From a virus (Duplodnaviria > Caudoviricetes), in the IMG/VR virus record IMGVR_UViG_3300031787_000438, positions 1-35,228 of that record: a DNA stretch of 35,228 nt. One strand, 5' to 3'. The translations under genes and the position numbers were made by a program. Positions 3,308-33,968 of the stretch are shown one piece after another; positions within the stretch are counted from its first letter, which is position 1; each line of letters opens with the position of its first letter. Below the pieces are notes generated by a model. It searched no databases. It was not told where the DNA came from and was given only the letters and a program-made list of their open reading frames with translations.

Positions 3308-4158
3308 CAGCGAACCCCCCGAATGGTAATGGCAACATTGGCAATGGTGGTGTCAGCAACGGCGGGCGCGGTGATCCGCAGAACGTCGCCAGCGGCAAAC
3401 GCCTGGTCAATGCCGCCGCTGGTGGCAAAGGTGAAAACGCCCCCGGTCGAGATGGTTATCGTCCCGATCGCGCTGCCGTTCCTGGTGACGCTCAAGATAT
3501 AGCTGGCCAGCGGGTTGGTGCCGCAACTGCCGCGCGCCGCGGGGCTGGCAAAGTTGGCGGGGATCACAAAGGCTTCCGGCGCAACGTGGATGCAGACCAC
3601 TTCGTTGCTGGCCGGGCTCAGCGTGAAGAAGAACCCGAACGAATAGCTTGGCAGCGAGTTGGCATCGCGCATCACCACGTCGCCGTTGGCATCAAAAGCC
3701 AGCCACTTGTTTGCGCGCTCGGTCTTGTCTGGCAGCACAAAGTCGGCGCTGACGTCGCTGACCGCCAACGAGATCACCCGGCCCAGCGTCGTCTCCATCT
3801 GGCGGATCATCGCCACGATCTTCGACAGCTCGATGTTGAGGCTTTCGATCTGGAACGGCCCCGACAGCGGGAAGTCGGTCAAACGCTCAACCGGCACGTC
3901 ATGCAGGATGGTAATCACATCACCCAGCGCAGCCCCCGGTGCACCCAGAGTGATTGATCCGCCTAAATCGTTGTTGGCCCCAGCAACAGAATACTCAGTG
4001 GCATTGCCCGGCGTCGGGTTATAGGTCAAAATCGTGCCGTCGTTGTAGACCTTTAGCTCGTCCACCTCAAAAAAGGTGAACGGCACAGAAAACACAGTCT
4101 GGCCATCCGTTGCCGTGTATTGCCGGCGCGCCGCAGTGTCGTTGATCTTGAGTGCCAT
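3307..4158 (-). CDS. Tail fibre / adaptor with T7 gp17-like N-terminal anchor
   Basis: N-terminal YTATDGQTVFSVPFTFF...ELKVY...TDF...LN.EL pattern typical of podovirus fibre anchors; GGAG RBS before ATG 4158. Confidence 0.8.
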   Translation of the reverse strand: MALKINDTAARRQYTATDGQTVFSVPFTFFEVDELKVYNDGTILTYNPTPGNATEYSVAGANNDLGGSITLGAPGAALGDVITILHDVPVERLTDFPLSGPFQIESLNIELSKIVAMIRQMETTLGRVISLAVSDVSADFVLPDKTERANKWLAFDANGDVVMRDANSLPSYSFGFFFTLSPASNEVVCIHVAPEAFVIPANFASPAARGSCGTNPLASYILSVTRNGSAIGTITISTGGVFTFATSGGIDQAFAAGDVLRITAPAVADTTIANVAITIRGVR

Positions 4159-4201: not shown

Positions 4202-4217
4202 GTCACAATGGACTAGT
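4202..4217 (-). promoter_or_regulatory. Late-promoter-like motif, copy 1 (ACTAGTCCATTGTGAC)
   Basis: Exact 16-mer shared with 16615-16630 and 20081-20096; upstream of the tail fibre gene; overlaps the TAG of the upstream gene. Confidence 0.7.
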
Positions 4218-7200
4218 CCTCGACCGCCTCAAAGGCATAGCGCTCCGCTTCGATGAAACTGTCGCGCCACCACAGCACATCGTTCAAGGGGATCGACCGA
4301 CGAATGATGCCCGCCATCTCGCGATCGGTCATGTCGTCGCCTGACATTACCCGCGTGAGGTCGGCAATCTTGCCAACTGCCGGACCACCAATGTCCGCAT
4401 AGTCGGCGTAGTTCTCGCCCTTGTTGAACGGTTCCATGCCGAGCATCGGGCGCACCCCGACGCGGCCACCCGAGAGGATCTCAAGCTTGTTCGGGATATC
4501 CTGATAAAGCCCGAGCACGCCCGAAGCATCGGCCACGCGCAGCAGCTTCTCCTCGACCGGCATCCGGTGCCATTGCTGGTCATCAGTCTTGAGGTTCTGC
4601 GCCACCCAGGCCAGCCCCATGATTATCGCCAGCCCTGCCACCGGAGACTGGTCGCGCCCCTGCAGGGCCGAGAGCGTCACCTTGTTGATGGCGGCAAAGC
4701 CATACTGCATGAACTGGAACGGCATAGTCAGCAGCGGAAACTCGCGGCCAGCAATGAAGCCCTTGGCGATCATCGGCACATCGGCCGGGCCAGCGGTCGG
4801 GACAATGCGGCGGCTCATGCCCGTCACGGCAGTCAGGTAACGCGTCGCAAGATCCCCATCGCTCCACTCGCCCACGTTGGGCAGATACATCTGGCCTTGC
4901 CGTTCGACCGGCATTTCCTGCACGATCCGGCGCGCATCGTCAGCCGATAGCCCGTAACTGGCAAGCCGTTCAGCCAGCTTGGCATCGCCGGTCTGCACCA
5001 GCTTGGCCATATCCTCGATCATGAACTGGTTGATGAAGGTAAGGTTGAGGCGCTTGGTAATGTCAGTGATTGCGGCCAGCCCGTTCAGCAGGAAGTAAGG
5101 ACCGTTGACGAAGTTGGTGCCCTTCTGCGCCAGGCGGCCAACCTTGCCGGTCGCGGCGCCCAGCGGCCCGCCCTGCTCGACAAAGCGGTCCATCACGCTC
5201 GACAGCACCATGTCGAAGCCTTCGCCAGTCAGGCGGGCCAGCTCTCCCGAGATCTTGCCCCATGCTTCGCGGTTGCCAAGAATATCCAGCGCAAAGCCAA
5301 AGGTCCGCATGAAGCCGTTGACCATGATCCCACGGCCAAGCTCAGGCACAGACGACAGCGCCGACCGCCCCAGCGAAGTGACTGTGCCATAAGCGCGCAA
5401 GCCAGCGGCAATGCGGCGCTTGTTCATCATGGCTGGATCGGTCGAATAGATTGCGCCCGTCACCGTGTCGCGCAGCTCGCCCATGTCTTGCCGCAAGCGG
5501 CCCAGCTGCGCCTCGGCATTGGCCAAGTCAGCAAACTGAAGCTCGCGCGCTGATTGCAGGATCACATCGTCGATCGCGTCCTCGGCATCGAACGTGCCGA
5601 ACTTGCGACTGAACTCCTGCACCAGCCCGAAGCGGTGCGCATAGTTGCGCACGATATGCTCAACGTCCGTGACCAGAAAATCAGCCACCAGCTCGTTGGG
5701 AATGTCGATCTTGCGGCTCGACAAGAAGCTGGCCCCGCCGCCCTTCATGATCTGCATTTCGCCAAGCTCGGCCTCGCGCATGATCTGGCTCACCGCTTCT
5801 TCCGCGCGGCGCATGATCGCCCCGTCATTCATCGACGCGCCCGGCAGCGGGTTCTTCTTGAACCAGTCGAACAGGATTTGCGTGAGGCGCTGCGGATCCT
5901 GCCGCACCTGGTCAATGTCCCAGACGCGGCTGATATAGTTGGCCTCGTTCTTCGGGCCTTCGTAGCGGTCAATCGCCCCGGCCAGGCGCTGCTCGAGCCG
6001 GTCAAGGTAATCGCGCTGCTTGCCGGTCAGGAAGCTGGTGCCATCCGCCTTGGCATCAAGGTCGATTGCTTTGCCGGTGATGGCATCGGTCGCTTTCCAG
6101 CGCCCCGCCGGGATCACAACATCGCCATCGGTCTTGGCAAACGCCTCGCCCATTGTCTCAGGATCGAGTTTGGGCAGCGCCGCGGTGTCAATCTCGAACA
6201 CGACCGCGCCGCGCACATCGCGAGCCGACGATGCGCTAGCCTGGGTAGGATCAAGTGGACGCGCGATGAAATCGTTTACATCAAGCTGCGCGCCATTCCG
6301 CTTTGCCAGCTGGTCAATTGCAGCCAGCACATCGCGCTGCCGCTGCGTTGCGTGCTGGCTAATGTCGATTGCATACTGGTCCGAGTAATTGCGAAGCAGC
6401 ACATATTTGTCGAGGCCGGCAGCGGCATCGGCGCCAGCCTCCTGCCCAGCCCGAGTATAAGCCTCGGCCAATGCGCCAGCAAACCCGGCGTGATCACCGC
6501 GGCCTTCGTCAAAGTTCAACTCCCAAATGCGCCCCTTGGGATCGATAACTGCGGCAAACAGATTATCTTGGCGCACCTTGGTAGGATCAAACAAATCCGC
6601 CGGACGCAAGCGTTTGCTATGCTTGAGGACCGCTTCATCAATCGGATCCATTTGGTTGAGAGCAGCTTGACTTGCATCCGGGTTTGCTGGTCCCCCGCGC
6701 GTGGCATAATCGGCGGCCAGGTTGCGCTCAGCAGCAAACGACACGCCCTGCTGCTTGCCCCCGAAGTTCTCGCTCGGTCGCAGCACAAGGTTGCCATCGG
6801 CATCAACAAAGGTGGTGAGATCCTCGCGCGTCCCATGATAGACGGTCGCGCCGATCTTGGCGTCAGGGTTATAGCTGAAGTCGAACCCGTCGAGCTGGGC
6901 CATTGCTTCCTGTGCCCGCGCGTCAACCCCGGCCAGCGCCTCGCGCAGTCGCTGTTGCAACATCTGCTGAGCCGGCGAACCACCGCCATCGTTCGACCAG
7001 ATGCGCTCGGCAATGTCGTCGCGATAAGCGCGCTCACCATCGGTCAGCCCAATCTGTTCCTCCTTCTGGTTGAAGTAGGCCAGCAGCTTCTCGTCCTTGT
7101 CGATGCGCGCGGCAATCGTCGCCTGCACATCGGCCAGCAATTGCTCGGTGTCCTCGCGGCGCTTCTCGCCCTTGGCAAGCAGGTCGTTGCGGGTCGCCTC

Positions 7201-9309
7201 CATCTGCGCGCGGCGGTCGGCGGCGTTCTTCTCGATCTCGTCGAGCACGGCCTTCAAGCCCTCGTCGGCCGGCAGTTCGTCGTCGAGGCGCTTGTCCATC
7301 CAGTCAAGCAAGCGCTGCTGCTGGCGGGTCAGTTCCGCCAGCTCGGCAATTTCGTTCACGCTAAGCCCGGCTTCATCAGGCAAGAGATTGTCGAGCAGGA
7401 CAATCTGCTTGTCAGGATTAAACACAATAAAAACGTCCGACGCCGCGCCAATCATGTTCTTGGTGGCAGGGTCGCTAATGCTCCTCAGGATCAGCCCGTC
7501 AGCGCCATGCTGCCGAGCCAACGGGATCAGTTGGGGGTTGATAATCGACCAGTTGTTGAACGTGCCAAACACCTCGGCAAAGTCCAGCTGCTGCCCATTT
7601 GGCAGCGTCACTGTCTTGGTCGCATTATCGTATTCCAGCGGGCGCTGAAGATTAAGATGCGCCTCGCGGACAACACCATCGCCGCCGCCCGCTTTGGCAT
7701 AATCATCAGCCAGTTCTGAATTGGCGGTAAACCAGACTGCACCACGCTCAGATGCCTTCTGCTTAAGCGCGGTATCACCCCAATCAAACGTCAGCATCAG
7801 CTGGCGCACAGCCTTAGAAAGCGGGGTTTCCTTGCGGCCCCGCCCCTTGAACTTGTCAAAGTTTTCGCTTGTGCCGTGAAATACCACCAGCGGCTTGTCG
7901 TCAGGTCCGACCACCCGCGTCCCGGCAACCGATGCGGTAAGTTCTGCGCGGCGCGTAGCGCGCCGTTCTGCCTTGACGGTTTGCCCTTTGGCAGACAGTT
8001 CCTCAAACCGGGCGATCATCTGCCGACCGCGCTCGGCACGCCGAGAAAGCAGCTTCTTGAAGCCCTCAGCCGATCGAATGGCGCCGGAAGCCACGCCCTT
8101 CTCCATTGCTTCATCAAAGAAGCCACGCACCAAGTCTGCGCCCTCTTTGACAAACGGGTTGTCCGCCTCGATCCGGTCTGACTTGTGCGCCCGGAAGATT
8201 GCGTCCTTGAACTCCTCGTAATTCAACTTGCCATCAGCGCGGCTCCCCTTGCCAAAGAACTCGGCGATCTTCTGCGGTGCCGTGGCAAGGTTCAGGCCCA
8301 TGACCTGCATCCCGCCATCGCCGCCTGTCAGGTAGCGCGAATAGATCTGGTTGAGCTTGACGCTGAAATCAGCCGCTTGCCCGCGCCACAGCTGCGAAGC
8401 AAGATAAGCGGACATTTCAGTTGGCAGCTGCTGCCGGTTACGCGCCGACAGCGTGCCGTAGTCACCGGCCACAGCATCGGCAAAGTCCTCGACCGCGCGC
8501 ACGCCCAGGTTCTTGAGCCGCCCCCACAGGGTTATCTTGGTCTGGTTTTCCAGCCCATAAGCAGGCGCAACGCCCACCGCCGCATCGCCACTTGGACGCG
8601 CGACAAAGCCCGTGCCTGACTGAATGATTGGCTCGGCATCGCTGGCAGTCTGGCCCAGCGGGCCGCGCTCCATGACCTTGAGCTCAGCGGCAAAGCGTTC
8701 GCCCAGGTCGCGCGCATTGGCCCGGCCATAAGCCCCGACCGCGCCCGACAGCACGCCGCCAAATAGCGTCCCATAAAGAACATTGTTCCAGCTTTCCTCG
8801 GCGGTAGCCGTAGGATCGACCTGTTGGCGCAGCAGCTCCTCGGCGGTCAACGTTGCGCCAAAACCGGCGCCACCCTTAAGCACGCCCTTGGCAAAGCCTG
8901 CGCCCATCACACCCGGCAGCGGGATCACGTTGACCGGGTTTAATAGCTCGGACAGCATCAGGCCGCCAAAGCCCAGGTTGGCCTCGACGTTGGCGCGGCG
9001 CTGCTTGTTCTTGTCGATCCGCGCCTTCATCGCATCGGCTTCGGCACGGTGATAGGTATGGATAAACTCGTCGGTGTAGGCTTCGTAGCCTTTGAGGTAA
9101 TCGCCCTCGTAAGGGTTGAAGCGGCCGCCATCAGTGCCGGCCATCAGCATGTCATAGGTGCGCCCAGCAGTCTGATAGACCGGCTGCAGCGTGACCGCAT
9201 CCCACAGCGCGCTTCCCCAGGTTGACCAGCTATCGTCGGGCGCGTTGAGCGGCGCGACAGGAAGATTGTCGCCAACGTAGAGCGGCGTGTCTTGCTTACC
9301 CTCAGCCAC
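4213..9309 (-). CDS. Large internal virion (ejection) protein, polyvalent, with two ADP-ribosyltransferase-like modules
   Basis: 1698 aa in the gp16-equivalent position. Module 1: KPLVVFHGT..GAVWFT..A..YA..L....PL..DG.I....VFIVFNP (ART-PolyVal-like). Module 2: VYHGT..GVSF..A.DYA..VVFEID. Confidence 0.8.
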   Translation of the reverse strand: MAEGKQDTPLYVGDNLPVAPLNAPDDSWSTWGSALWDAVTLQPVYQTAGRTYDMLMAGTDGGRFNPYEGDYLKGYEAYTDEFIHTYHRAEADAMKARIDKNKQRRANVEANLGFGGLMLSELLNPVNVIPLPGVMGAGFAKGVLKGGAGFGATLTAEELLRQQVDPTATAEESWNNVLYGTLFGGVLSGAVGAYGRANARDLGERFAAELKVMERGPLGQTASDAEPIIQSGTGFVARPSGDAAVGVAPAYGLENQTKITLWGRLKNLGVRAVEDFADAVAGDYGTLSARNRQQLPTEMSAYLASQLWRGQAADFSVKLNQIYSRYLTGGDGGMQVMGLNLATAPQKIAEFFGKGSRADGKLNYEEFKDAIFRAHKSDRIEADNPFVKEGADLVRGFFDEAMEKGVASGAIRSAEGFKKLLSRRAERGRQMIARFEELSAKGQTVKAERRATRRAELTASVAGTRVVGPDDKPLVVFHGTSENFDKFKGRGRKETPLSKAVRQLMLTFDWGDTALKQKASERGAVWFTANSELADDYAKAGGGDGVVREAHLNLQRPLEYDNATKTVTLPNGQQLDFAEVFGTFNNWSIINPQLIPLARQHGADGLILRSISDPATKNMIGAASDVFIVFNPDKQIVLLDNLLPDEAGLSVNEIAELAELTRQQQRLLDWMDKRLDDELPADEGLKAVLDEIEKNAADRRAQMEATRNDLLAKGEKRREDTEQLLADVQATIAARIDKDEKLLAYFNQKEEQIGLTDGERAYRDDIAERIWSNDGGGSPAQQMLQQRLREALAGVDARAQEAMAQLDGFDFSYNPDAKIGATVYHGTREDLTTFVDADGNLVLRPSENFGGKQQGVSFAAERNLAADYATRGGPANPDASQAALNQMDPIDEAVLKHSKRLRPADLFDPTKVRQDNLFAAVIDPKGRIWELNFDEGRGDHAGFAGALAEAYTRAGQEAGADAAAGLDKYVLLRNYSDQYAIDISQHATQRQRDVLAAIDQLAKRNGAQLDVNDFIARPLDPTQASASSARDVRGAVVFEIDTAALPKLDPETMGEAFAKTDGDVVIPAGRWKATDAITGKAIDLDAKADGTSFLTGKQRDYLDRLEQRLAGAIDRYEGPKNEANYISRVWDIDQVRQDPQRLTQILFDWFKKNPLPGASMNDGAIMRRAEEAVSQIMREAELGEMQIMKGGGASFLSSRKIDIPNELVADFLVTDVEHIVRNYAHRFGLVQEFSRKFGTFDAEDAIDDVILQSARELQFADLANAEAQLGRLRQDMGELRDTVTGAIYSTDPAMMNKRRIAAGLRAYGTVTSLGRSALSSVPELGRGIMVNGFMRTFGFALDILGNREAWGKISGELARLTGEGFDMVLSSVMDRFVEQGGPLGAATGKVGRLAQKGTNFVNGPYFLLNGLAAITDITKRLNLTFINQFMIEDMAKLVQTGDAKLAERLASYGLSADDARRIVQEMPVERQGQMYLPNVGEWSDGDLATRYLTAVTGMSRRIVPTAGPADVPMIAKGFIAGREFPLLTMPFQFMQYGFAAINKVTLSALQGRDQSPVAGLAIIMGLAWVAQNLKTDDQQWHRMPVEEKLLRVADASGVLGLYQDIPNKLEILSGGRVGVRPMLGMEPFNKGENYADYADIGGPAVGKIADLTRVMSGDDMTDREMAGIIRRSIPLNDVLWWRDSFIEAERYAFEAVED

Positions 9310-12561: not shown

Positions 12562-14720
12562 CAGACCATTACCTCCAGCTGCAAGCCGATGATCGTGCAG
12601 GCCAACGGTTCGCTCTGCGTGATCGTGACGACTGCGTTTTTCTGCCAGCCCAGCAGCCAGAACTCGTAAGTGCCAGTGACGGGATCAGGTGCGAGTGATA
12701 GATCATCGGTCACTTGTCGCAGGATCAGGCGGTTGCCATCAATGGACACGGCTAGCGTCGAGTGCAGCCCGACGATCACCCGGTTGATCCGCTTGGGAAT
12801 GCCCATCATTGGGCCGGTTGCCAGCTGCACATTAATCGGCAGGATCTCGACCGCAAAGGTGTAGTCATAACCCACCGTGATCTCGGTCACGGACACCGGC
12901 AGGGTTAGCTCGCCAGCACCGCCAACCGTGAAGGTGCCAAGGTGCAGCCCGCCCGAATTGACCGCCACGGTCTTGCCGAAATAGATCGCCCCCACCGTCC
13001 AGCTGTCGCTTGCGGCCCCGGTGTAGATAGTCGCCCCGTCCAGCGCCTGTCCGCGATCGGCCGAAACAGCCTCAAGCCGGTAGGTTCCGCCGCGCAGCAC
13101 GGAGAAATAGATCGTTTCGCCCACCACGCAGACGCTATCGAAGCTGCCAGCCGTATCCCACGGCGTCCACCCAGCCAGGTTCTCAGCGCGGGCCGAATGA
13201 AACACCGCCGCCTTGCCAGTCTCGTTGACCAGCAAGGCATACTGCTCAGAGCGATCGGTAGTGCCGAACAACACCGCCATGTCCTGTGGCTGGCTGACAA
13301 TGTGCGAGGAGAGGATGTTGAGGTTGGTGCTCTCGTAGCCGCCGCGCGCCTCGTTATACATGAACTCGCGCACCGCAGTCCCACTGCCCTGCACATAGAG
13401 CGTTGCTCCGTCCAAGGGGAGCGGGCAGACCGACGAGCAACCATAGGGCGTCTGCCGGCGAATGCGCATCGTCACCGGCGTCAGGGTGCCGTTGTTGGGC
13501 GGCGGCGCAAAGAACTCACCCAGGGCCGTGAAGATCAGCAGATCGCGGTGGCTGACAAGGTGGCGAATGTTGGAGATATCCTCCGCCCCCACCGTCACCT
13601 GGATGCTGTCGCTATCCAGCCCCTCGCCCACATCGAAGTTGAAATACTGGTAGATTACCGAGGACCACAGCCCGTCAGGAATGCCGGTCGTGCCGCCGAA
13701 CCACAGCCGCCCCTCATGGAAGCAGACCGCGCCCGGCCAGCCATTGCGTTCGCAGAACACCGGCTCTGTCCAGTCGGTCGTGGCAATTGCCGAGCCGGTA
13801 TATTGGACCGAAGGCCCGCCGCCATCCTCGCCAATCGTGGCGCTGCCGGCCGTGCTGATCGAATAGCGGTTGTCGTCCAGCACCGTAATCGTGAAGGTGC
13901 CATTGAGCTGGGCAGAAGTAACCCCGCCAACATCCGACGCGCCGCTGATCGTGATGCTGGCCCCGGTAGCAAAGCCATGCGCAACATGCGTGACCTCGAC
14001 CACGCCTGAGCCCAGGTTGGTGCGGAACGGATCCGGTTCGTAGCGCCCGACGATCGTGCCCTGCACCGTGGCTGTCAGGACAGTGGTGCTGGTGTAGCCG
14101 GTGACAGCAAGCTCGACATCCTTCCAGCGCAGCCGCTGGCCCACCATGTCAGAGGTGAACACGGCAGCATTGGCGGTGACGGTGACAGAACCTGTCACCC
14201 CTGAGCAGCTGATCGTGACCGGATCATCGACAAACTTGTAGTAGGGCTGGTAGATCTTCTGGCCGTTCGACGCCTGCGTGAAAGCAAAATCAGCCACGGT
14301 AAAGGTGGACAGGCCGGTGCGCTTGATCACCTGCGGCGACCACGCCTGATGGCAAACAAGCATCGTGTCCGCGACCTGGGTATAGGTCAGCTCGAACAGC
14401 TCGTCGGTGGTCCAGTTGCAGCCGCTCGTCACGCTGGTCAGCAGCGCGCCAGCTAGCGAATACACATCAAGCCGCCCGTTCGACAGGCACAGAACGTAGC
14501 GCTCAGCAGCCGAAAACTCGAAGGCCAGCAGCCGGCCACGGCCAGCAAGGTTGGCAAGGTGCAGGGTGCCAGGGCGCCGCGCCACACCGCCCGTCGAGAG
14601 CAGCATCCCGTTGCGCAGCGACTTGGCCCCGTTCTGGTAGGCCCCGGTATCCACGCGGAACAGCATCAGCGGATCCAGCTCACCGCTCGAGAAGTTGGTC
14701 TGGAGCTGGTGGATCGGCAT
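12561..14720 (-). CDS. Tail tubular protein B / nozzle
   Basis: QTNFSSGELDP..R.D N-terminus, GGVARRPG and WP.AV.FHEGRLWFGG motifs. Confidence 0.9.
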   Translation of the reverse strand: MPIHQLQTNFSSGELDPLMLFRVDTGAYQNGAKSLRNGMLLSTGGVARRPGTLHLANLAGRGRLLAFEFSAAERYVLCLSNGRLDVYSLAGALLTSVTSGCNWTTDELFELTYTQVADTMLVCHQAWSPQVIKRTGLSTFTVADFAFTQASNGQKIYQPYYKFVDDPVTISCSGVTGSVTVTANAAVFTSDMVGQRLRWKDVELAVTGYTSTTVLTATVQGTIVGRYEPDPFRTNLGSGVVEVTHVAHGFATGASITISGASDVGGVTSAQLNGTFTITVLDDNRYSISTAGSATIGEDGGGPSVQYTGSAIATTDWTEPVFCERNGWPGAVCFHEGRLWFGGTTGIPDGLWSSVIYQYFNFDVGEGLDSDSIQVTVGAEDISNIRHLVSHRDLLIFTALGEFFAPPPNNGTLTPVTMRIRRQTPYGCSSVCPLPLDGATLYVQGSGTAVREFMYNEARGGYESTNLNILSSHIVSQPQDMAVLFGTTDRSEQYALLVNETGKAAVFHSARAENLAGWTPWDTAGSFDSVCVVGETIYFSVLRGGTYRLEAVSADRGQALDGATIYTGAASDSWTVGAIYFGKTVAVNSGGLHLGTFTVGGAGELTLPVSVTEITVGYDYTFAVEILPINVQLATGPMMGIPKRINRVIVGLHSTLAVSIDGNRLILRQVTDDLSLAPDPVTGTYEFWLLGWQKNAVVTITQSEPLACTIIGLQLEVMV

Positions 14721-24980: not shown

Positions 24981-25096
24981 CTTCGAACCTTTCTCACACC
25001 AAAAAATATCAGAAGGGGTGCGGACCTTGGGGAGAAAAATTGCGTGTGGTGGGCCCCTCGCAATCCCACACTCCCTGTTTTCAACCCCCTCCCCCC

Positions 25097-25486
25097 TCAG
25101 CTCAGATCGATGTTCACCGTCACATCGCCATGAACTCTGTGGTCCACACGGTCTGGTGCCTTCAGTCCAACACGGTTGAGAACATCTTGTGCTGCTTGAA
25201 GGCGAACATACTCGGATTTGGCTGAGAGAAGGTCATGCAAGCGTTGAACTGCTACAGGTGACTGCATGACAAGCTCGTTCATGGTTCGAGCCATGATGGC
25301 CTGGATGACATGTGGTTTGGCAAGCAGTTCATACGCTTGTGACCGAGCGGTGTCCTTGGAGTAGCCGGCTTCGATAGCGGCTTCTGTCTTGTGTCCACCG
25401 TTACTGACAAACGCATCGACGAAGGCGGCTTGCATGGGGGTTAGCTCCTTGGTGCTATCGGAGCTGGCTACGGGGATCGGGAGCAT
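25097..25486 (-). CDS. terS: Terminase small subunit
   Basis: LT..Q.AFV..F.......EAAI.AGYS..TA......LL..P.V HTH signature. Confidence 0.9.
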   Translation of the reverse strand: MLPIPVASSDSTKELTPMQAAFVDAFVSNGGHKTEAAIEAGYSKDTARSQAYELLAKPHVIQAIMARTMNELVMQSPVAVQRLHDLLSAKSEYVRLQAAQDVLNRVGLKAPDRVDHRVHGDVTVNIDLS

Positions 25487-25555
25487 GGGATACCTTGGAG
25501 AGCGGTGGAGTTAGGAGAGCGCGCGCGCGAGGAAGCCTTGCCCTTGGAAGGGCGT

Positions 25556-25567
25556 CAATGGACTAGT
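25556..25567 (-). promoter_or_regulatory. Late-promoter-like motif, copy 5 (ACTAGTCCATTG, continuing as TTGACG)
   Basis: 12-nt exact match at the head of the late operon, upstream of terS. Confidence 0.7.
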
Positions 25568-25598
25568 CCTTAGCCCTTGATTGGTAGGCCTAAACTGA

Positions 25599-26067
25599 CG
25601 CGCGCTCGGGGCGCGGCCCTCCGGGCTGTTCGCGCCGAGGGTGTCTGGCGAGCCAGACTATAGCTGACCCTCGCTGTGCGTGCTGCGGGGAAACCTGTGC
25701 GGGCAAGTCGATGACGGCCTTCGGCCGGCATTGTTACCACAGCCCTGAATGCTGGTCGCATTCGGCTGTTGGCCTTGCCCAAGCACTAGGTTTCCGGGCC
25801 GAGAGAAGCCCACCCCTGCGAAGCAGGGAACCCGGCTTCCCGGCCCGTCCTCGCGCCAGCGAGGGGGCACCGCGCGCGCGACGGCGAAGGATACCACGTC
25901 CGTTCCGGAGTGAAGGGGCGATTGTGCCCCCTGCAATGCAGTCCGACAGCGGATTTCCCTGTCTTTGCAGGCGGCACAATCGTCGGCCCCTGGCCGAGTG
26001 AACCCCCTTCAGCACCGGACGTGCGGCCGTGATCTGAACTGTGGGTCGCTATCACGGTGATGGCGAC
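25599..26067 (+). ncRNA. Large multi-domain structured non-coding element (RNA or ssDNA) between the divergent late and early operons
   Basis: More than ten nested stems, e.g. 25668-76/25857-65, 25689-96/25788-95, 25796-801/25841-46, 25895-902/26016-23, 25911-18/26004-11, 25919-28/25973-82; no credible ORF. Confidence 0.65.
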
Positions 26068-26084
26068 TGACAGGAGTAGATATC

Positions 26085-26285
26085 ATGACCATTCAGACCA
26101 TCGAGATCGAACAAGAGTTTGCCGTCCTCGGCGGCGTGCTTCGCACCAGCTGGGCCGAGATCGAGGATTACTTCTTCGACCAGGCGCAGGACGAGGACTT
26201 CATCGTCGAAGGCATCGAGGAAGGTGCGAAGCTGTGCTGCCCGATGTGCGGCAGCGACTTGGAGATCCAGGGCGGAAAGCAATGA
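26085..26285 (+). CDS. Small acidic early protein with CPxCG motif
   Basis: CAGGAG RBS; 15 D/E versus 3 K/R in 66 aa. Confidence 0.75.
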   Translation: MTIQTIEIEQEFAVLGGVLRTSWAEIEDYFFDQAQDEDFIVEGIEEGAKLCCPMCGSDLEIQGGKQ

Positions 26286-29307: not shown

Positions 29308-30015
29308 ATGGCTATTGCTGCCATCGAGTGGGCCTTCAACCAGTCCACTCCAAACCCGAGTGCCAAGCTGGTGCTGCTGGCACTGGCCGACCATGCCGAT
29401 GAGCATGGTCACTGCTGGCCTGGCATCAGCCGCATCGAACAGCGCACCGGACTATCCCGCTCGACGGTGATCCGTGCGCTGGCCGAGCTTGAGACCGGGC
29501 GCCTGATCGAACGCACCCGGCGTGGCACCACTAGCAACAGCTACACTTTAACTAGTGTCACCATGACACCACCAAAGTGTCACCATGACACTACCCCTAG
29601 TGTCACCATGACACCCGAACCGTCATTAGAAACGTCAAAGAAGCCTAACAGGGCGCGCGCCCAACTAAGCAGCATAACCGAGGACTGGCATCCCGATGCT
29701 GATCTCTGGAAGTGGGCGCACGACAACTTCCCCCTGTTCACCCGAGAGGACTTGACCAATGCAACCGATAGGTTCCGTGATCACTGGATTAGCAAAGCCG
29801 AGCGTCGAGCAGACTGGCGCGCCAGCTGGCGCAACTGGATCCGCAACGATGCCAAGTTTGCAGCGCGCTCCCACTCTGCCACTCGGCTGGATCGGGTCCG
29901 CTCGACAAATGCTGAGCGTATCAACGCTGCAATGGATCGGCACGGCGTATCACAAACGCGAGAGCCCGGTCGGTCACACCTTAGGCTCGTTGCAGATAGT
30001 GATAGCGGACATTGA
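29308..30015 (+). CDS. Replication initiator (lambda O-like, N-terminal HTH)
   Basis: KLVLLALADHAD..G.CWP...I...TGLSR.TV.RAL..LE; C-terminal F.DHW.......DW.A.WRNW; internal iterons. Confidence 0.85.
   Translation: MAIAAIEWAFNQSTPNPSAKLVLLALADHADEHGHCWPGISRIEQRTGLSRSTVIRALAELETGRLIERTRRGTTSNSYTLTSVTMTPPKCHHDTTPSVTMTPEPSLETSKKPNRARAQLSSITEDWHPDADLWKWAHDNFPLFTREDLTNATDRFRDHWISKAERRADWRASWRNWIRNDAKFAARSHSATRLDRVRSTNAERINAAMDRHGVSQTREPGRSHLRLVADSDSGH
29554..29614. repeat. Three iterons AGTGTCACCATGACAC, putative replication origin
   Basis: Exact 16-mers at 29554, 29576 and 29599 (22/23-nt period); each contains the palindrome GTGTCA-N3-TGACAC; inside the initiator gene. Confidence 0.8.
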
Positions 30016-30346
30016 TCGGGACGCTAACGCTATCGAAACATGGATGAGGCCAGCCACCAAGGCGACCATCATCAAGACTGTCGAAGCTATGGCCTCGCTG
30101 TTCCAAGCGCCTGTGCCTGATGATCTCGGCTTTGATCTCTATATCCTGGCGCTGGCACAGATGCCTGGCCCAGTGTTCAAGGCAGCACGCAACAAGCTGA
30201 TCACCACCCACAAGTGGCCGCGCCTACCCTTGCCGGCTGACTTTGTTGCAGCAGGGCAGGAAGAACAGGAGAGGATCGATGCTGTCCGCTCCGTGCTTCA
30301 GACCGCGCGCCGCCAAGCTGAGCGCGCGATCCTCACCCTGCGCTGA
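29990..30346 (+). CDS. Putative helicase loader / replication accessory protein
   Basis: Follows the initiator; Y..AL...P......A.......W...P.PAD motif; start uncertain. Confidence 0.55.
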   Translation: MQIVIADIDRDANAIETWMRPATKATIIKTVEAMASLFQAPVPDDLGFDLYILALAQMPGPVFKAARNKLITTHKWPRLPLPADFVAAGQEEQERIDAVRSVLQTARRQAERAILTLR

Positions 30347-30361
30347 CGCATTATTTTGTAG

Positions 30362-30389
30362 TTGAAATGCTGCATGTATGCAGTAGTAT
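30362..30389 (+). promoter_or_regulatory. Sigma70-like promoter TTGAAA-N16-TAGTAT with operator CTGCAT-GT-ATGCAG in the spacer
   Basis: AT-rich intergenic stretch upstream of the recombination operon. Confidence 0.6.
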
Positions 30390-30409
30390 CAACACCACAG
30401 GAGAGAAAC

Positions 30410-31213
30410 ATGGCATCCCTTGAGACTATCCGCGCCAACCGCAGCGAGGGCATCGGTTCATCCGACACCAAGCGCATCATGGATGGCGACTGGCACCGCC
30501 TCTACATGGAAAAGGTAGGCGAGACCGAGCCGGAAGATTTGTCCGGCGTGTTTCGTGTGCAGCTGGGCATCTACACCGAGACGTTCCACCTCGACTGGCT
30601 CGAGCGCAAGTATGCCTGCCAGATCGAGCGCCCGATGCAGCGCTTCTATGCGCCTGACTATCCCGTCATGTTCGCCCACCTCGACGGGGTGCATGTCGGC
30701 AAGGGTGTGCCGGTAGAAACCAAGCACACCAGCAGTGACGCACGGCTGCGTGACAAGGCAGTCTACTACATGCCGCAGCTGCAGCATGTGCTGTCCATCA
30801 CCGGCCATGACTACATGCTGTTCTCGATCATCGCTGGCAACAGCGAGCCGGAATGGTGCGAGGTTGCCGCCAACCTTGAATACCAGGCCGAGCTACGCGA
30901 GCTGATCAAGAGCTTCTGGTGGCACGTCGAGCAGCGTGTGCCGCCCGAGATTATCCCGACTGCCACGCTCAAGGCGGTCGAGCGTGTCGGCGCCACCACT
31001 CCGATCGATGGGCTGAAGCCCTACGACATGACCGGCAACAACGAGTGGGCCAACTACGCGCAGGACTACATCGACTGCATGGCGGCGGCTGCGTTGTTCG
31101 CCGATGCCAAGGATGGCCTGAAGAAAATGATGCCTGCCGATGCCAGCGAGTGCACCGGCCACGGCATTACCATCAAGCGGGACAAGCGCGGTGCGCTGAG
31201 GTTCGGCGCATGA
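30410..31213 (+). CDS. YqaJ-like viral recombinase exonuclease
   Basis: R..GIGSSD, LY.EK.G, HLDG, VETK and YMPQLQH motifs; AGGAG RBS. Confidence 0.9.
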   Translation: MASLETIRANRSEGIGSSDTKRIMDGDWHRLYMEKVGETEPEDLSGVFRVQLGIYTETFHLDWLERKYACQIERPMQRFYAPDYPVMFAHLDGVHVGKGVPVETKHTSSDARLRDKAVYYMPQLQHVLSITGHDYMLFSIIAGNSEPEWCEVAANLEYQAELRELIKSFWWHVEQRVPPEIIPTATLKAVERVGATTPIDGLKPYDMTGNNEWANYAQDYIDCMAAAALFADAKDGLKKMMPADASECTGHGITIKRDKRGALRFGA

Positions 31214-31290
31214 TCGACCTCACCTGGATCAACATCATCGTTGGCATCGCCGCTTATTGCGCCGTGGTCACGCTGTTCGTGACCGGGTAG
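31210..31290 (+). CDS. 26-aa single-TM microprotein
   Basis: MIDLTWINIIVGIAAYCAVVTLFVTG; ATGA coupling to the YqaJ stop. Confidence 0.4.
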   Translation: MIDLTWINIIVGIAAYCAVVTLFVTG

Positions 31291-31329
31291 CACCACTTCA
31301 TCAGCAACGTCCGACTGCAGGAGGCAGGC

Positions 31330-31629
31330 ATGGATCTGTTCGACTATCCCAACCAGCCAGGTTTCAAGGAACAAGAAACGTCGAGAGCGGCGGCCGAGGC
31401 AATCGCCCCTCGCACGCCCCGCCTTCGTGCGGCGTGCCTTCGGGTGATCGCCCGTCAGCCAGCAACACCAGATGAGGTGGCAGATGAGCTGGGCCTGTCG
31501 ATCCTCTCGATCCGGCCACGCTTTACCGAACTCGCCCGAACCGGGCGCATTACCGACACCGGCCTGCGCCGCCCCAACCAGAGCGGGCGCATGGCTAAGG
31601 TGTGGTGCATCAAGGAGACAGCACAGTGA
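31330..31629 (+). CDS. Winged-helix DNA-binding protein
   Basis: TS.AAA..I...T.DEVA..LG....SIRPR.TEL...G.I...G.RR....GR.A.VW; GGAGG RBS. Confidence 0.8.
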   Translation: MDLFDYPNQPGFKEQETSRAAAEAIAPRTPRLRAACLRVIARQPATPDEVADELGLSILSIRPRFTELARTGRITDTGLRRPNQSGRMAKVWCIKETAQ

Positions 31630-32294
31630 GCGACAAGAACACACGCTTTTGGGACGCGCTCGGCAAGACCGACCCCAAGCACACCAAGGGTTTCAGCCGG
31701 GCGGGCGGGTTCAAAGGCACCGCACTCAAGCCGATCTGGATCGTCAAGCGGCTGACCGAAACCTTCGGCCCGGTCGGTGAAGGCTGGGGCACGGAAGAAC
31801 CGCAGTTCACCCTGGTCCACGGACAGGACGGTGAGGTCATGGTCTATTGCCATGTCCGCTGCTGGCACACCAAGCCCGGCCAGTTCTTCTACGGGGTAGG
31901 CGGCGACAAGGTTGTGACCAAGCGCTCCTCGGGCCAGCTGTTCCACGACGACGAGGCTTTCAAGAAGGCGTTCACCGATGCGGTCAACAACGCCTTCAAG
32001 TATGTCGGCGTCGGCGCCGACGTTCATATGGGCCAGTTCGAGGACAGCAAGTATCTCGATCAGGTCGGCGCTGAGTTTGCCGCCGAGGCCAAGGTCGACA
32101 AGGTGGCTGAGCTTGACGAGTTCCGCACTGCGATCGATGCCGCCACCAACCTTGAGCAGCTGGACCTGGCGCTCGCCAAGCACCGGCCGGCAGTCGATGC
32201 GCTTGCCAAGACGCACGCCGCACAGGTTGCTGCCGTGCGCCAGCACTACAGCGCCAAGAAGGGCGAGCTGACCAAGGTGCTCGAACCAGCATGA
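31626..32294 (+). CDS. Rad52/Sak-like single-strand annealing protein
   Basis: LTE.FGP.G.GW...AFKKA.TDA...A...GVGADV motif; partner of YqaJ; AAGGAG RBS and GTG start. Confidence 0.7.
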   Translation: MSDKNTRFWDALGKTDPKHTKGFSRAGGFKGTALKPIWIVKRLTETFGPVGEGWGTEEPQFTLVHGQDGEVMVYCHVRCWHTKPGQFFYGVGGDKVVTKRSSGQLFHDDEAFKKAFTDAVNNAFKYVGVGADVHMGQFEDSKYLDQVGAEFAAEAKVDKVAELDEFRTAIDAATNLEQLDLALAKHRPAVDALAKTHAAQVAAVRQHYSAKKGELTKVLEPA

Positions 32295-32301
32295 GCTTCA
32301 T

Positions 32302-32428
32302 CCCCGGAGTGCAAGCCGGGGCTCCAGCCTGACGCCGTGACAGGTGAAGAACCACGGCACCCCCGCACCCTGCCCGCACTGCGCGACTAGGCAGCTAACT
32401 CCCGAAACCCGCTTACGGGGCAGGGTGC
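32302..32428 (+). ncRNA. Structured ssb leader: hairpin, H-type pseudoknot and 11-bp stem
   Basis: CCCCGG/CCGGGG; GCCTG(32327)/CAGGT(32341) interlocked with GCCGTG(32334)/CACGGC(32353); GCACCCTGCCC/GGGCAGGGTGC. Confidence 0.5.
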
Positions 32429-32462
32429 ATCACCATCACCAGTGACACAAAGGAGACATACC

Positions 32463-32870
32463 ATGCTTACCATGCAGGTGATTGGCAACCTCGGCAAAGA
32501 CCCCGAGTTCAAGACCCTCGACAGCGGGCGCCAGCTGTGCAGCTTCAGCCTTGCTTCGAACAAGAAGATCAAGGGCGAGAAGGTGACGACCTGGGTGAAC
32601 GTGACCGTGTTCGACGAGAACAAGATCAAGTTCCTCAAGGACTATGTGCGCAAGGGCAGCAAGCTCTTTGCCGAAGGCGAACCCGCGGCCCGTGCCTACT
32701 TGAAGGATGGCGAAGCCAAGCACAGCCTCGACCTGACGCTCGGCTTCAACTCCAAGCTCGAGATCCTTTCGAGCGAGCGCGCTGAGCGTGACGACGACGA
32801 TCGCCGTGGAGCTGCGCCCGTGGGCGGCAGCGCCACCGATCTGAACGACGCCATTCCTGGCTGGGATTAA
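32463..32870 (+). CDS. ssb: Single-stranded DNA-binding protein
   Basis: IGNLGKDPE, FSLA, T.W..V.VF and KGS...EG motifs; acidic tail (DDDD...DAIPGWD). Confidence 0.93.
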   Translation: MLTMQVIGNLGKDPEFKTLDSGRQLCSFSLASNKKIKGEKVTTWVNVTVFDENKIKFLKDYVRKGSKLFAEGEPAARAYLKDGEAKHSLDLTLGFNSKLEILSSERAERDDDDRRGAAPVGGSATDLNDAIPGWD

Positions 32871-32887
32871 CGACCCACATCCCAGTC

Positions 32888-32998
32888 TTGAATGACGGTG
32901 CGGGGCCTGAACCTCCCTTCATAATTCCCGCATCGTTCAACTTGGAAGGGGCCTGTCGGCTCCCCCCTCCTGTCTAACTGGCAGGTCCCTTTCATTTT
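32888..32998 (+). ncRNA. Two-hairpin RNA with C-rich anti-Shine-Dalgarno loops (cuckoo-like sRNA or terminator)
   Basis: Long stems with G-U pairs on the plus strand; loops contain CCUCCC and CUCCCCCCUCC; short U-tract after the second stem. Confidence 0.5.
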
Positions 32999-33010
32999 CG
33001 GAGAGAGCTC

Positions 33011-33133
33011 ATGCGTGAAGATTGGCACCAAGCGCCAGAGCCGGTGGAAGAACCGCCGTTCTGCGATCGCTGCTTTGGCTACCATCACTGGCAAGCCGCC
33101 TGCCCTGACGAGGAGGACAACGACGATGAATGA
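33011..33133 (+). CDS. 40-aa acidic CCHC zinc-knuckle microprotein (absent from ORF track)
   Basis: MREDWHQAPEPVEEPPFCDRCFGYHHWQAACPDEEDNDDE; C-x2-C-x4-H-x4-C; GGAGAG RBS; stop overlaps the ardC start. Confidence 0.65.
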   Translation: MREDWHQAPEPVEEPPFCDRCFGYHHWQAACPDEEDNDDE

Positions 33134-33968
33134 TCTGCACCAGACCATGACCGACCGGATCCTCGCCAGCGTTGACGAGGCTGGTCAGTGGAAGCCCTGT
33201 TGGCAGGGCATGACGGGTGGCCTGCCCACCAATGCCTCGACCGGCAAGCGCTACAATGGCGTCAACATCCTGTCGCTGTGGCTGTCAGGCTACGGCAGCA
33301 ATCGCTGGGCCAGCTACAACCAGTGGCAAGCGCTCGGCGCCCAGGTCCGCAAGGGTGAGCGCGGCACCCCGATCATCTTCTACAAGGTGATCGAAGGGCC
33401 AACGCCTGACGACAACAAGCTGTTCGCGCGCGGCAGCAAGGTGTTCAACGCCGAGCAAGTCGATGGCGCACCAGCTGTTGAAGCGCCGCCAATCACCACC
33501 CTGTCAGCAGACCAACGCCTTGAAGCGCTCGACCGCTGGCTGATGGATCGCAGCCATGTGCTGCGGGTCCAGACTTCCGACAGCGCGCACGCCTACTACC
33601 AGCCTGCGCTCGACACCGTTTACATGCCGGACTTCAGCCTGTTCCACACGCCCGAGCATTTCTACGGCACGCTGTTCCATGAGGCGACCCACTGGACCGG
33701 CCACAAGTCCCGGCTTGACCGGCTTGCCAACTACATTGGCGAAGGCCGGGCCAAAGAAGAACTGGTTGCCGAGCTTGGCGCTGCGTTCCTGTGCGCTGAG
33801 TTTGGGATCGAGCAGGTCACGCGCGACGATCATGTCAGCTACATTGCCAGCTGGCTCAAGCACCTGAAGAACGACAAGCGCTGCATCGTCACTGCTGCCA
33901 GCCAGGCAAGCAAGGCGGTCGAGCTTCTCAATGCCATCCAACCTGCACAGCAGCAGCTTGCAGCCTGA
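33126..33968 (+). CDS. ardC: ArdC-family antirestriction protein (ssDNA-binding plus zincin-like domain)
   Basis: P.N..TG..Y.G.N...LW, W.SY.QW...G.QVRKGE.G, VFNAEQ, HEATHWTGH..RL.R and EELVAELGA motifs; GAGGAGG RBS. Confidence 0.9.
   Translation: MNDLHQTMTDRILASVDEAGQWKPCWQGMTGGLPTNASTGKRYNGVNILSLWLSGYGSNRWASYNQWQALGAQVRKGERGTPIIFYKVIEGPTPDDNKLFARGSKVFNAEQVDGAPAVEAPPITTLSADQRLEALDRWLMDRSHVLRVQTSDSAHAYYQPALDTVYMPDFSLFHTPEHFYGTLFHEATHWTGHKSRLDRLANYIGEGRAKEELVAELGAAFLCAEFGIEQVTRDDHVSYIASWLKHLKNDKRCIVTAASQASKAVELLNAIQPAQQQLAA

Follow-up and report, generated by a model that had tools for sequence, protein, structure and literature searches.

What does the long, strongly folded non-coding stretch at the point of divergence of a podovirus genome do? 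The window considered here is the whole of IMG/VR record IMGVR_UViG_3300031787_000438, a 35.2-kb podovirus record (35,228 nt), in which T7-like virion genes run leftward from terS and, starting at position 26085, a lambda-like early block with an O-type initiator, YqaJ exonuclease, ssb, ardC and parB runs rightward. An earlier note, made from the sequence alone, had read the stretch between the two blocks as either a large non-coding RNA or a folded single-stranded DNA (ssDNA) element.

The element and its genomic surroundings

The genes and sites that frame the element are as follows.

25097–25486, minus strand: terS, which leads the leftward virion block (PHROG 51, PF03592)
25520–25609, minus strand: block of 89 nt identical in relatives L002 and L003, the left border of the exchanged interval
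25610–26068, no strand assigned: exchangeable folded cassette, 459 nt in the window, about 355 nt and unrelated in L002
26085–26285, plus strand: first early gene, hypothetical protein of 66 aa, 97% identical in L002
29554–29618, plus strand: three 20-nt palindromic repeats within the lambda-O-like initiator gene
30362–33968, plus strand: YqaJ/RecE-like exonuclease, ssb and ardC of the early block

The operon with ssb, ardC and parB does lie downstream, as the earlier note had it, but 6–8 kb from the cassette and not next to it. The exonuclease, ssb and ardC are a possible source and possible users of ssDNA. No member of the RNA polymerase, DNA polymerase or primase families was found in the 41 scanned ORFs of the window and no relaxase among its scanned genes; the genome is that of a dsDNA tailed phage. 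Judged by their sequence, the palindromic iterons at 29554–29618 are a likely candidate for a dsDNA origin, 3.5 kb to the right of the cassette. The gene after the initiator (29759–30346) gives a weak lead to helicase loaders of the G39P type, an Atlas search with the second early protein returned no usable match, and a large internal virion protein (4213–9309) carries an ART-PolyVal ADP-ribosyltransferase domain.

Among cultured phages, Pelagibacter phage Hodr is the nearest (62% in terL); it shares the divergent layout, with a gap of 326 nt. The layout described for HTVC010P-type phages (PMC8477408, in part) fits that of the window; HTVC010P itself is absent from the matches to the window. 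The same phage was found binned in a Novosphingobium MAG, a weak hint at its host.

On the terS side, a TTGAC(G/A) −35-like box (25558–25553) faces terS and recurs across the family; by its sequence it would be part of a promoter. TTGAC(A/G) is conserved in the terS upstream regions of the family, with the best −10-like bases 18–19 nt off in several relatives, and a G-rich tract is found in the terS leader of many marine members. Directly after the terS stop codon lies a non-coding motif of G-rich and A-tract sequence (25040–25100), which from its resemblance is presumably a candidate pac site. Two terS alleles occur together (window 25133–25550, runs X12 and X14; L325) and join the same downstream sequence at the conserved block, which suggests recombination at the terS border.

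The element itself has these parts.

25618–25624, minus strand: GNA mini-hairpin with a GGA loop
25668–25865, no strand assigned: domain 1, a multibranch fold
25718–25724, minus strand: GNA mini-hairpin with a GAA loop
25818–25824, plus strand: GNA mini-hairpin; strain variant 25821 A>G retains a GNA loop (GAA>GGA)
25888–25914, minus strand: promoter-like boxes, with a −35-like hexamer (25914–25909), a 15-nt spacer and an extended −10 TGnTATCCT (25896–25888)
25895–26023, minus strand: domain 2, a rod with a three-way junction, candidate single-strand promoter
25912–26010, minus strand: module C, a three-way junction common to the window and relative L087/L310
26027–26090, plus strand: terminal hairpin (26045–26067), the plus-strand extension of which can cover part of the RBS and the start codon

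The folding of 25599–26067 exceeds that of shuffled controls on both strands, with z of −8.1 (plus) and −7.0 (minus) for RNA and of −9.5 (plus) and −9.2 (minus) for DNA, and 0 of 100 shuffles was as good in either case. The two 240-nt tiles that cover the element have the largest excess folding energy among 146 tiles of the window. The earlier note, which had expected such an excess, described the element as base-paired almost throughout; the fold is strong indeed, but pairing in the minimum free energy (MFE) structures amounts to about three quarters (72–76% of bases). The helix arms that it quoted are where it placed them, except that the 3' side of the long arm contains AA and T bulges and does not form the unbroken string given, and its boundaries agree with the exchanged interval 25610–26068. 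The element is 67% G+C, with A+T runs of at most 4 nt. It is not an assembly artefact, since contigs of several runs bridge it. Only two positions were seen to vary in the window's version, and one of them, 25959 C>T, is a wobble on the plus strand only. Two regularities stand by themselves: the mini-hairpins at 25618, 25718 and 25818 are spaced by exactly 100 nt, and an 18-nt direct repeat (83%; 25794–25811 and 25989–26006) forms a junction segment in each domain.

Similarity searches with the window's own version gave little. Rfam 15 covariance models, the check that the earlier note had proposed, have no match in the element or in 12 related loci; blastn against phages and plasmids returned nothing meaningful (best E 0.04–0.2), and no homologue of domain 1 was found beyond near-identical strains. 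The region shows no conserved protein-coding frame: none of the five ORFs that span it matches a PHROG, and tblastn of these ORFs against 163 related loci found nothing.

Exchange of the cassette and the modules of its relatives

Relatives L002 and L003 match the window with 92% identity as far as 25609 and with 96% from 26069 onward, and are unrelated to it in between. L007 carries a third version, partly related to that of L002. For a family-wide view, terS loci were taken from two scans (each the best 80 of more than 500 matches); 134 loci with 700 nt upstream yielded 82 non-redundant ones and 77 regions of at least 200 nt, with borders set automatically and one region being a near-copy of the window. 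Within this best-80 sampling, 72 of the 77 regions fold as DNA with z below −2 (median −6.3, 8 shuffles each), as against 25 of 76 terS coding controls (median −1.35). Strong folding is therefore a trait of the family and sequence is not, given this difference and the exchange between near-identical flanks; of the conservation in relatives that the earlier note had hoped for, the fold at the slot is kept and the sequence is not. The 101 pairwise matches listed among family regions are all in one orientation. Between terS and the first early gene, members throughout this podovirus family carry a folded non-coding cassette in interchangeable versions, and the stretch in the window is one of these.

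Fast turnover and a domain 1 that has no homologue are what one would expect if the fold were left behind by inverted duplications in a spacer prone to recombination and had no function. Such an origin is very improbable in view of the strong folds in 72 of 77 unrelated listed sequences, the specific choice of loops (below), the covarying modules and the single orientation of all 101 listed matches. The position of the cassette next to terS raises another alternative, a genome-end or packaging element whose hairpins form upon nicking by terminase near terS, as in duplication of a terminal repeat; the terminal repeat of T7 is duplicated via a hairpin that forms after nicking. Out of 90 contig ends on the upstream side, 16 lie no more than 110 nt from the start of terS, compared to 6–9 per 200 nt in the next bins. 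These ends are scattered, however, lie to the left of the fold and may reflect assemblies that break where the border varies, contigs cross the element, and the shared modules described below stem from terminase-free elements, all of which makes this alternative quite unlikely.

Two such modules were found in relatives. The version in L002 (module B) matches 57 alphaproteobacterial plasmids, 53 of them conjugative. In seven of the eight plasmid records opened, module B lies 101–115 nt ahead of ardC, near conjugative-transfer genes (one of the seven ardC genes is unannotated and was assigned by position), and in the eighth it follows a T4SS gene. In the phages, it precedes the first early ATG by 105 nt (L007), 126 nt (L002) and 240 nt (L073). 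The window's element has no module B, and HMMs trained on the plasmids have no match in the window. These HMMs likewise missed the terminal hairpin, which by eye had seemed akin to those before plasmid ardC, and an inverted module-B-like match at 25900–25921 (E 1.9) was discarded.

Module A, present in other relatives and in many dsDNA phages, is a three-way junction of 60 nt that covaries and has conserved A.G mismatches. Copies cited here are:

L178 (F plasmid), 8104–8177 and 13501–13565
L180, 1602–1668
L093, 2777–2836

A profile trained on phage copies alone matches 12 of 83 family regions, 0 of 126 coding controls and 0 of 249 shuffled sequences (among the regions listed), and it also matches F, on the transferred strand, in each of the two duplicated Frpo blocks (E 9e-13 and 2.5e-11). 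According to rows of the PMC11541004 supplement (in part), ssiD is assigned to this same strand, and module A lies outside the mapped ssiD/Frpo by about 100 nt. The F copy in turn matches a gokushovirus between VP1 (capsid) and VP2 and a second microvirus, in both cases in intergenic sequence on the coding strand, and one phage copy matches 1862 plasmids, 1268 of them conjugative. In a structure set by hand from these same aligned sequences, 11 of 15 pairs change on both sides across 16 sequences. The covariance model finds 17 of the 83 family loci listed, 11 of which are its training copies, and F twice; one of the new loci is on the other strand, beyond terS. It has no match in pESBL, phiX174, G4 or the window, and neither profile nor covariance model detects module A in the window's element at E ≤ 10. 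The arm 25688–25745 (plus), which by eye resembles module A, is supported by neither. The module A pattern occurs at 120 loci, and a stricter pattern fits only 42 of them. L093 module A has no match in cultured phages. In several relatives a second, inverted TTGACA lies ahead of module A, and Sphingopyxis phage VSN-002 (L182) carries the module three times among recombination genes (1439–1505, 3993–4065 and 4434–4503), with one copy on the strand opposite to the other two. Module A is absent from Rfam, and searches of open-access literature listings turned up no description of the region or of modules A–C; older ssi papers are outside that scope, so module A may be a known ssi renamed. Passages of bioRxiv 10.1101/672428 make no mention of the region.

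The positions of module A bear on a priming-only function, in which the host primosome or primase would recognize the folded minus strand and start the lagging or complementary strand, the early genes being served by an ordinary promoter. Its place after the gokushovirus capsid gene on the coding strand is that of the phiX174 primosome site, a hairpin ahead of gene G (PMC9865509, in part), and in F it lies outside Frpo. The window's genes include neither primase nor polymerase, and the hairpin of RSF1010 ssiA is capped by CCGAAGG (PMC13037366, in part). At fourfold sites, the minus strand is G-richer in both gene blocks (−0.055 vs −0.235, p 3e-5), which fits a fork that moves leftward and has the minus strand as its lagging template, but may reflect codon use. 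On the other hand, the window has no module A, the phiX174 and G4 origins are unmatched, and if the gene after the initiator does encode a helicase loader, a primosome site is less needed. We regard priming alone as a fairly improbable function.

Loop type, strand and a candidate promoter in domain 2

Hairpins with loops of three nucleotides, to which the earlier note had drawn attention, are present in the element: it contains 3 of the 12 cGNAg hairpins with stems of at least 4 bp in 35 kb, although counting them simply as 7-mers gives no significant excess (1.4 expected, P 0.16). Such DNA mini-hairpins arise only from GNA loops on GC-GC or CC-GG stems, and the RNA form tested is far less stable (PMC13037366, in part). 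Over the 77 listed family regions, the allowed 7-mers number 74 on the minus strand, the template strand of the early genes, against 20.5 expected, and 20 against 13.5 on the plus strand; control 7-mers with the wrong closing pair are not raised (14 against 15.9). Where the motif can be read as a UUCG tetraloop on the plus strand, the triloop register is the longer in 9 of 9 cases and the UUCG register in 0, and elsewhere in the same listed loci the UUCG register occurs 6 times, mostly in terminators. Mismatches in strand-symmetric folding of the listed regions also differ between minus and plus (G.T 40 vs 19, G.A 55 vs 32). The loops of the family are of the DNA type, and their polarity is that of the minus strand. 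Several counts qualify this picture. In the listed regions, GNRA 8-mers on the minus strand are raised as well (33 vs 19), MFE G-T counts show no polarity (741 vs 764), and the mini-hairpin 7-mer is present in only 43 of the 77; it is also raised in first-early-gene controls among the loci listed (24 vs 10), and the Hodr region contains no cGNAg hairpins.

The window's own element leans to the other strand. DNA energies are equal (−154.8 plus, −154.1 minus), but RNA folds better as plus (−271.7 vs −257.6, with 160 vs 89 pairs above p 0.9), and G-T pairs favor plus by 12 to 3 in the RNA MFE and by 7 to 4 in the DNA MFE, as the earlier note had seen. A structured plus-strand RNA, be it an early 5' leader (antiterminator or translation control) or a stand-alone RNA, would account for these numbers, for the terminal hairpin that can cover the RBS and start codon on this strand, and for the −10-like hexamer TAAACT directly ahead of the element. 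It is nonetheless unlikely to be the function: the element contains no UUCG or GNRA hairpin and no Rfam match, the promoter scan found no sigma-70 site, near-identical phages replace the sequence wholesale, and the family's loops and polarity indicate DNA and the opposite strand. The RNA option of the earlier note is weakened by this lack of sequence conservation and of RNA tetraloops, though for the window's own copy it keeps some likelihood. Its switch, in which CCGTGAT would serve as an alternative partner in the terminal hairpin, fails, as forcing CCGTGAT onto ATCACGG costs 17 kcal/mol; CCGTGAT pairs rather with the start-codon region. As DNA, the extension of the terminal hairpin is weak (z −1.5).

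Domain 2 is the part of the element with a homologue. Module C recurs in L087/L310, whose terS is 48% identical to the window's, on the same strand and at a similar place, 75 nt (window) and 66 nt (L310) ahead of the first early start codon. L087/L310 is the only non-self family member among 11 IMG/VR matches to the module C pattern; 9 of the 11 viral and 5 of the 7 genome matches look like chance, lying outside the family, and the remaining genome matches are the same phage in the Novosphingobium bin. In L310, both module C loops are cGNAg on the minus strand, and the minus strand folds better. The extended −10 box of the window lies in an unpaired bubble at the base of the stem, on the 3' arm of the minus strand, and a TGnTAnnnT in L310, in the same register and at the same distance from the junction, is likewise in a bubble. 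This geometry is that of a single-strand promoter, a role the box may have, with one independent homologue, noticed after the fact, behind the comparison. The box scores 8/12 with its 15-nt spacer, and the stem has no A+T-rich run. The family as a whole shows no enrichment of this geometry (7 minus vs 8 plus among the 77 listed regions; shuffles 0–4).

Proposed function and comparison with known systems

Relatives swap in other folded sequences, some of which are common to plasmids and single-stranded phages, and the cassette therefore likely works as folded ssDNA. Of the two options in the earlier note this is the one that gained, mostly via family loops, polarity and the modules common to plasmid leading regions and ssDNA phages, though no Frpo/ssi homologue came to light. 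Specifically, we tentatively favor a Frpo-like ssDNA promoter and priming element on the minus strand, which is no member of the Frpo family. Masai and Arai (1997) is said to treat elements of the Frpo type. On ssDNA these elements drive early-gene expression, conversion to the duplex silences them, and their transcripts can prime the second strand (PMC9849209, PMC12672017, bioRxiv 10.64898/2026.01.09.698686, each in part).

By analogy, the minus strand would be transiently single-stranded at the cassette, either as the lagging-strand or displaced template of a leftward fork from an origin near 29.6 kb, or by 5'–3' resection of an incoming, terminally redundant end. To host sigma-70 polymerase, the rod of domain 2 would be a promoter already opened; the enzyme would bind it, read the extended −10 on the 3' arm, and copy the 5' arm rightwards from about 26030 towards the early genes. 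As for Frpo, the RNA would both express the early block and prime re-synthesis of the plus strand, which would turn the element off. Against SSB and nucleases, the fold of the region would be maintained by domain 1 and the GNA caps. The RBS-covering hairpin would fit a transcript starting just before it, and would equally fit an RNA leader. Several features of the window speak against the promoter and priming reading: it has neither module A nor B and no plasmid match, its G-T pairs favor plus, the 25959 variant is a wobble on that strand only and one of the three mini-hairpins is on it, the 15-nt spacer is short, and the same box could be an ordinary leftward promoter. The ssDNA stage in a dsDNA phage is itself one that we infer.

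A wider version of the same idea, which we consider doubtful, is that a widespread dsDNA podovirus family runs a "leading region" program in the style of plasmids: part of the incoming genome would be single-stranded, and a cassette drawn from a pool common to conjugative plasmids and microviruses would give host RNA polymerase a self-extinguishing switch for first-wave expression and second-strand priming. Promoters and priming signals that act on single strands have been described in conjugative plasmids and in ssDNA phages. If true, the proposal would add an unrecognized single-stranded step to the cycle of dsDNA podoviruses that have no polymerase or primase gene of their own, and would account for their ability to begin expression or replication on host enzymes only. 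Module A, which occurs in 1862 plasmids (F among them), in microviruses and in these phages, lends itself to a direct test in E. coli.

Among known systems, the closest are Frpo1/Frpo2 (ssiD, class 1) and the class 2–3 elements of F, ColIb-P9 and pESBL (PMC9849209, PMC12672017, PMC11541004, each in part). Like them, the cassette is a folded non-coding block on the template strand ahead of establishment-type genes (ssb, ardC, parB), with a promoter box, a candidate in the window, on one arm of a rod: the early block is on the plus strand, and the box and two caps are on the minus strand. In F, each of the two duplicated Frpo blocks contains module A of the relatives on the same strand. Unlike Frpo, the window's element is multibranched and 67% G+C, has no A+T-rich stem and belongs to a dsDNA tailed phage with no known single-stranded entry; no homology to Frpo or ssi1–3 was found for it.

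The hairpin promoters of the N4 virion RNA polymerase share with it GGA/GAA loops of three bases on short stems (PMC13037366, in part), but the window's genome has no RNA polymerase gene and its hairpins are embedded in a large fold. With the complementary-strand origins of Microviridae the link is module A in the post-capsid intergenic site of the gokushovirus, on the coding strand; G4 and RSF1010 ssiA also have GNA/GNNA caps (PMC13037366, in part), whereas the phiX174 primosome assembly site and the G4 primase site match neither the module A model nor the window's element. The elements of Rhizobiaceae plasmids that lie upstream of ardC, next to traG (pAtC58, pShin-10 and others), share module B with L002, L007 and L073. 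Module B is undetected in the window, but these elements are found at a similar distance and in a similar orientation, and they show the same excess of cGNAg on the minus strand (20 vs 4.1 in 23 regions upstream of plasmid ardC). The cassette is thus not a member of Frpo class 1, of the phiX174/G4 origins or of the N4 promoters, and would work in the manner of an ssi/ssp element.
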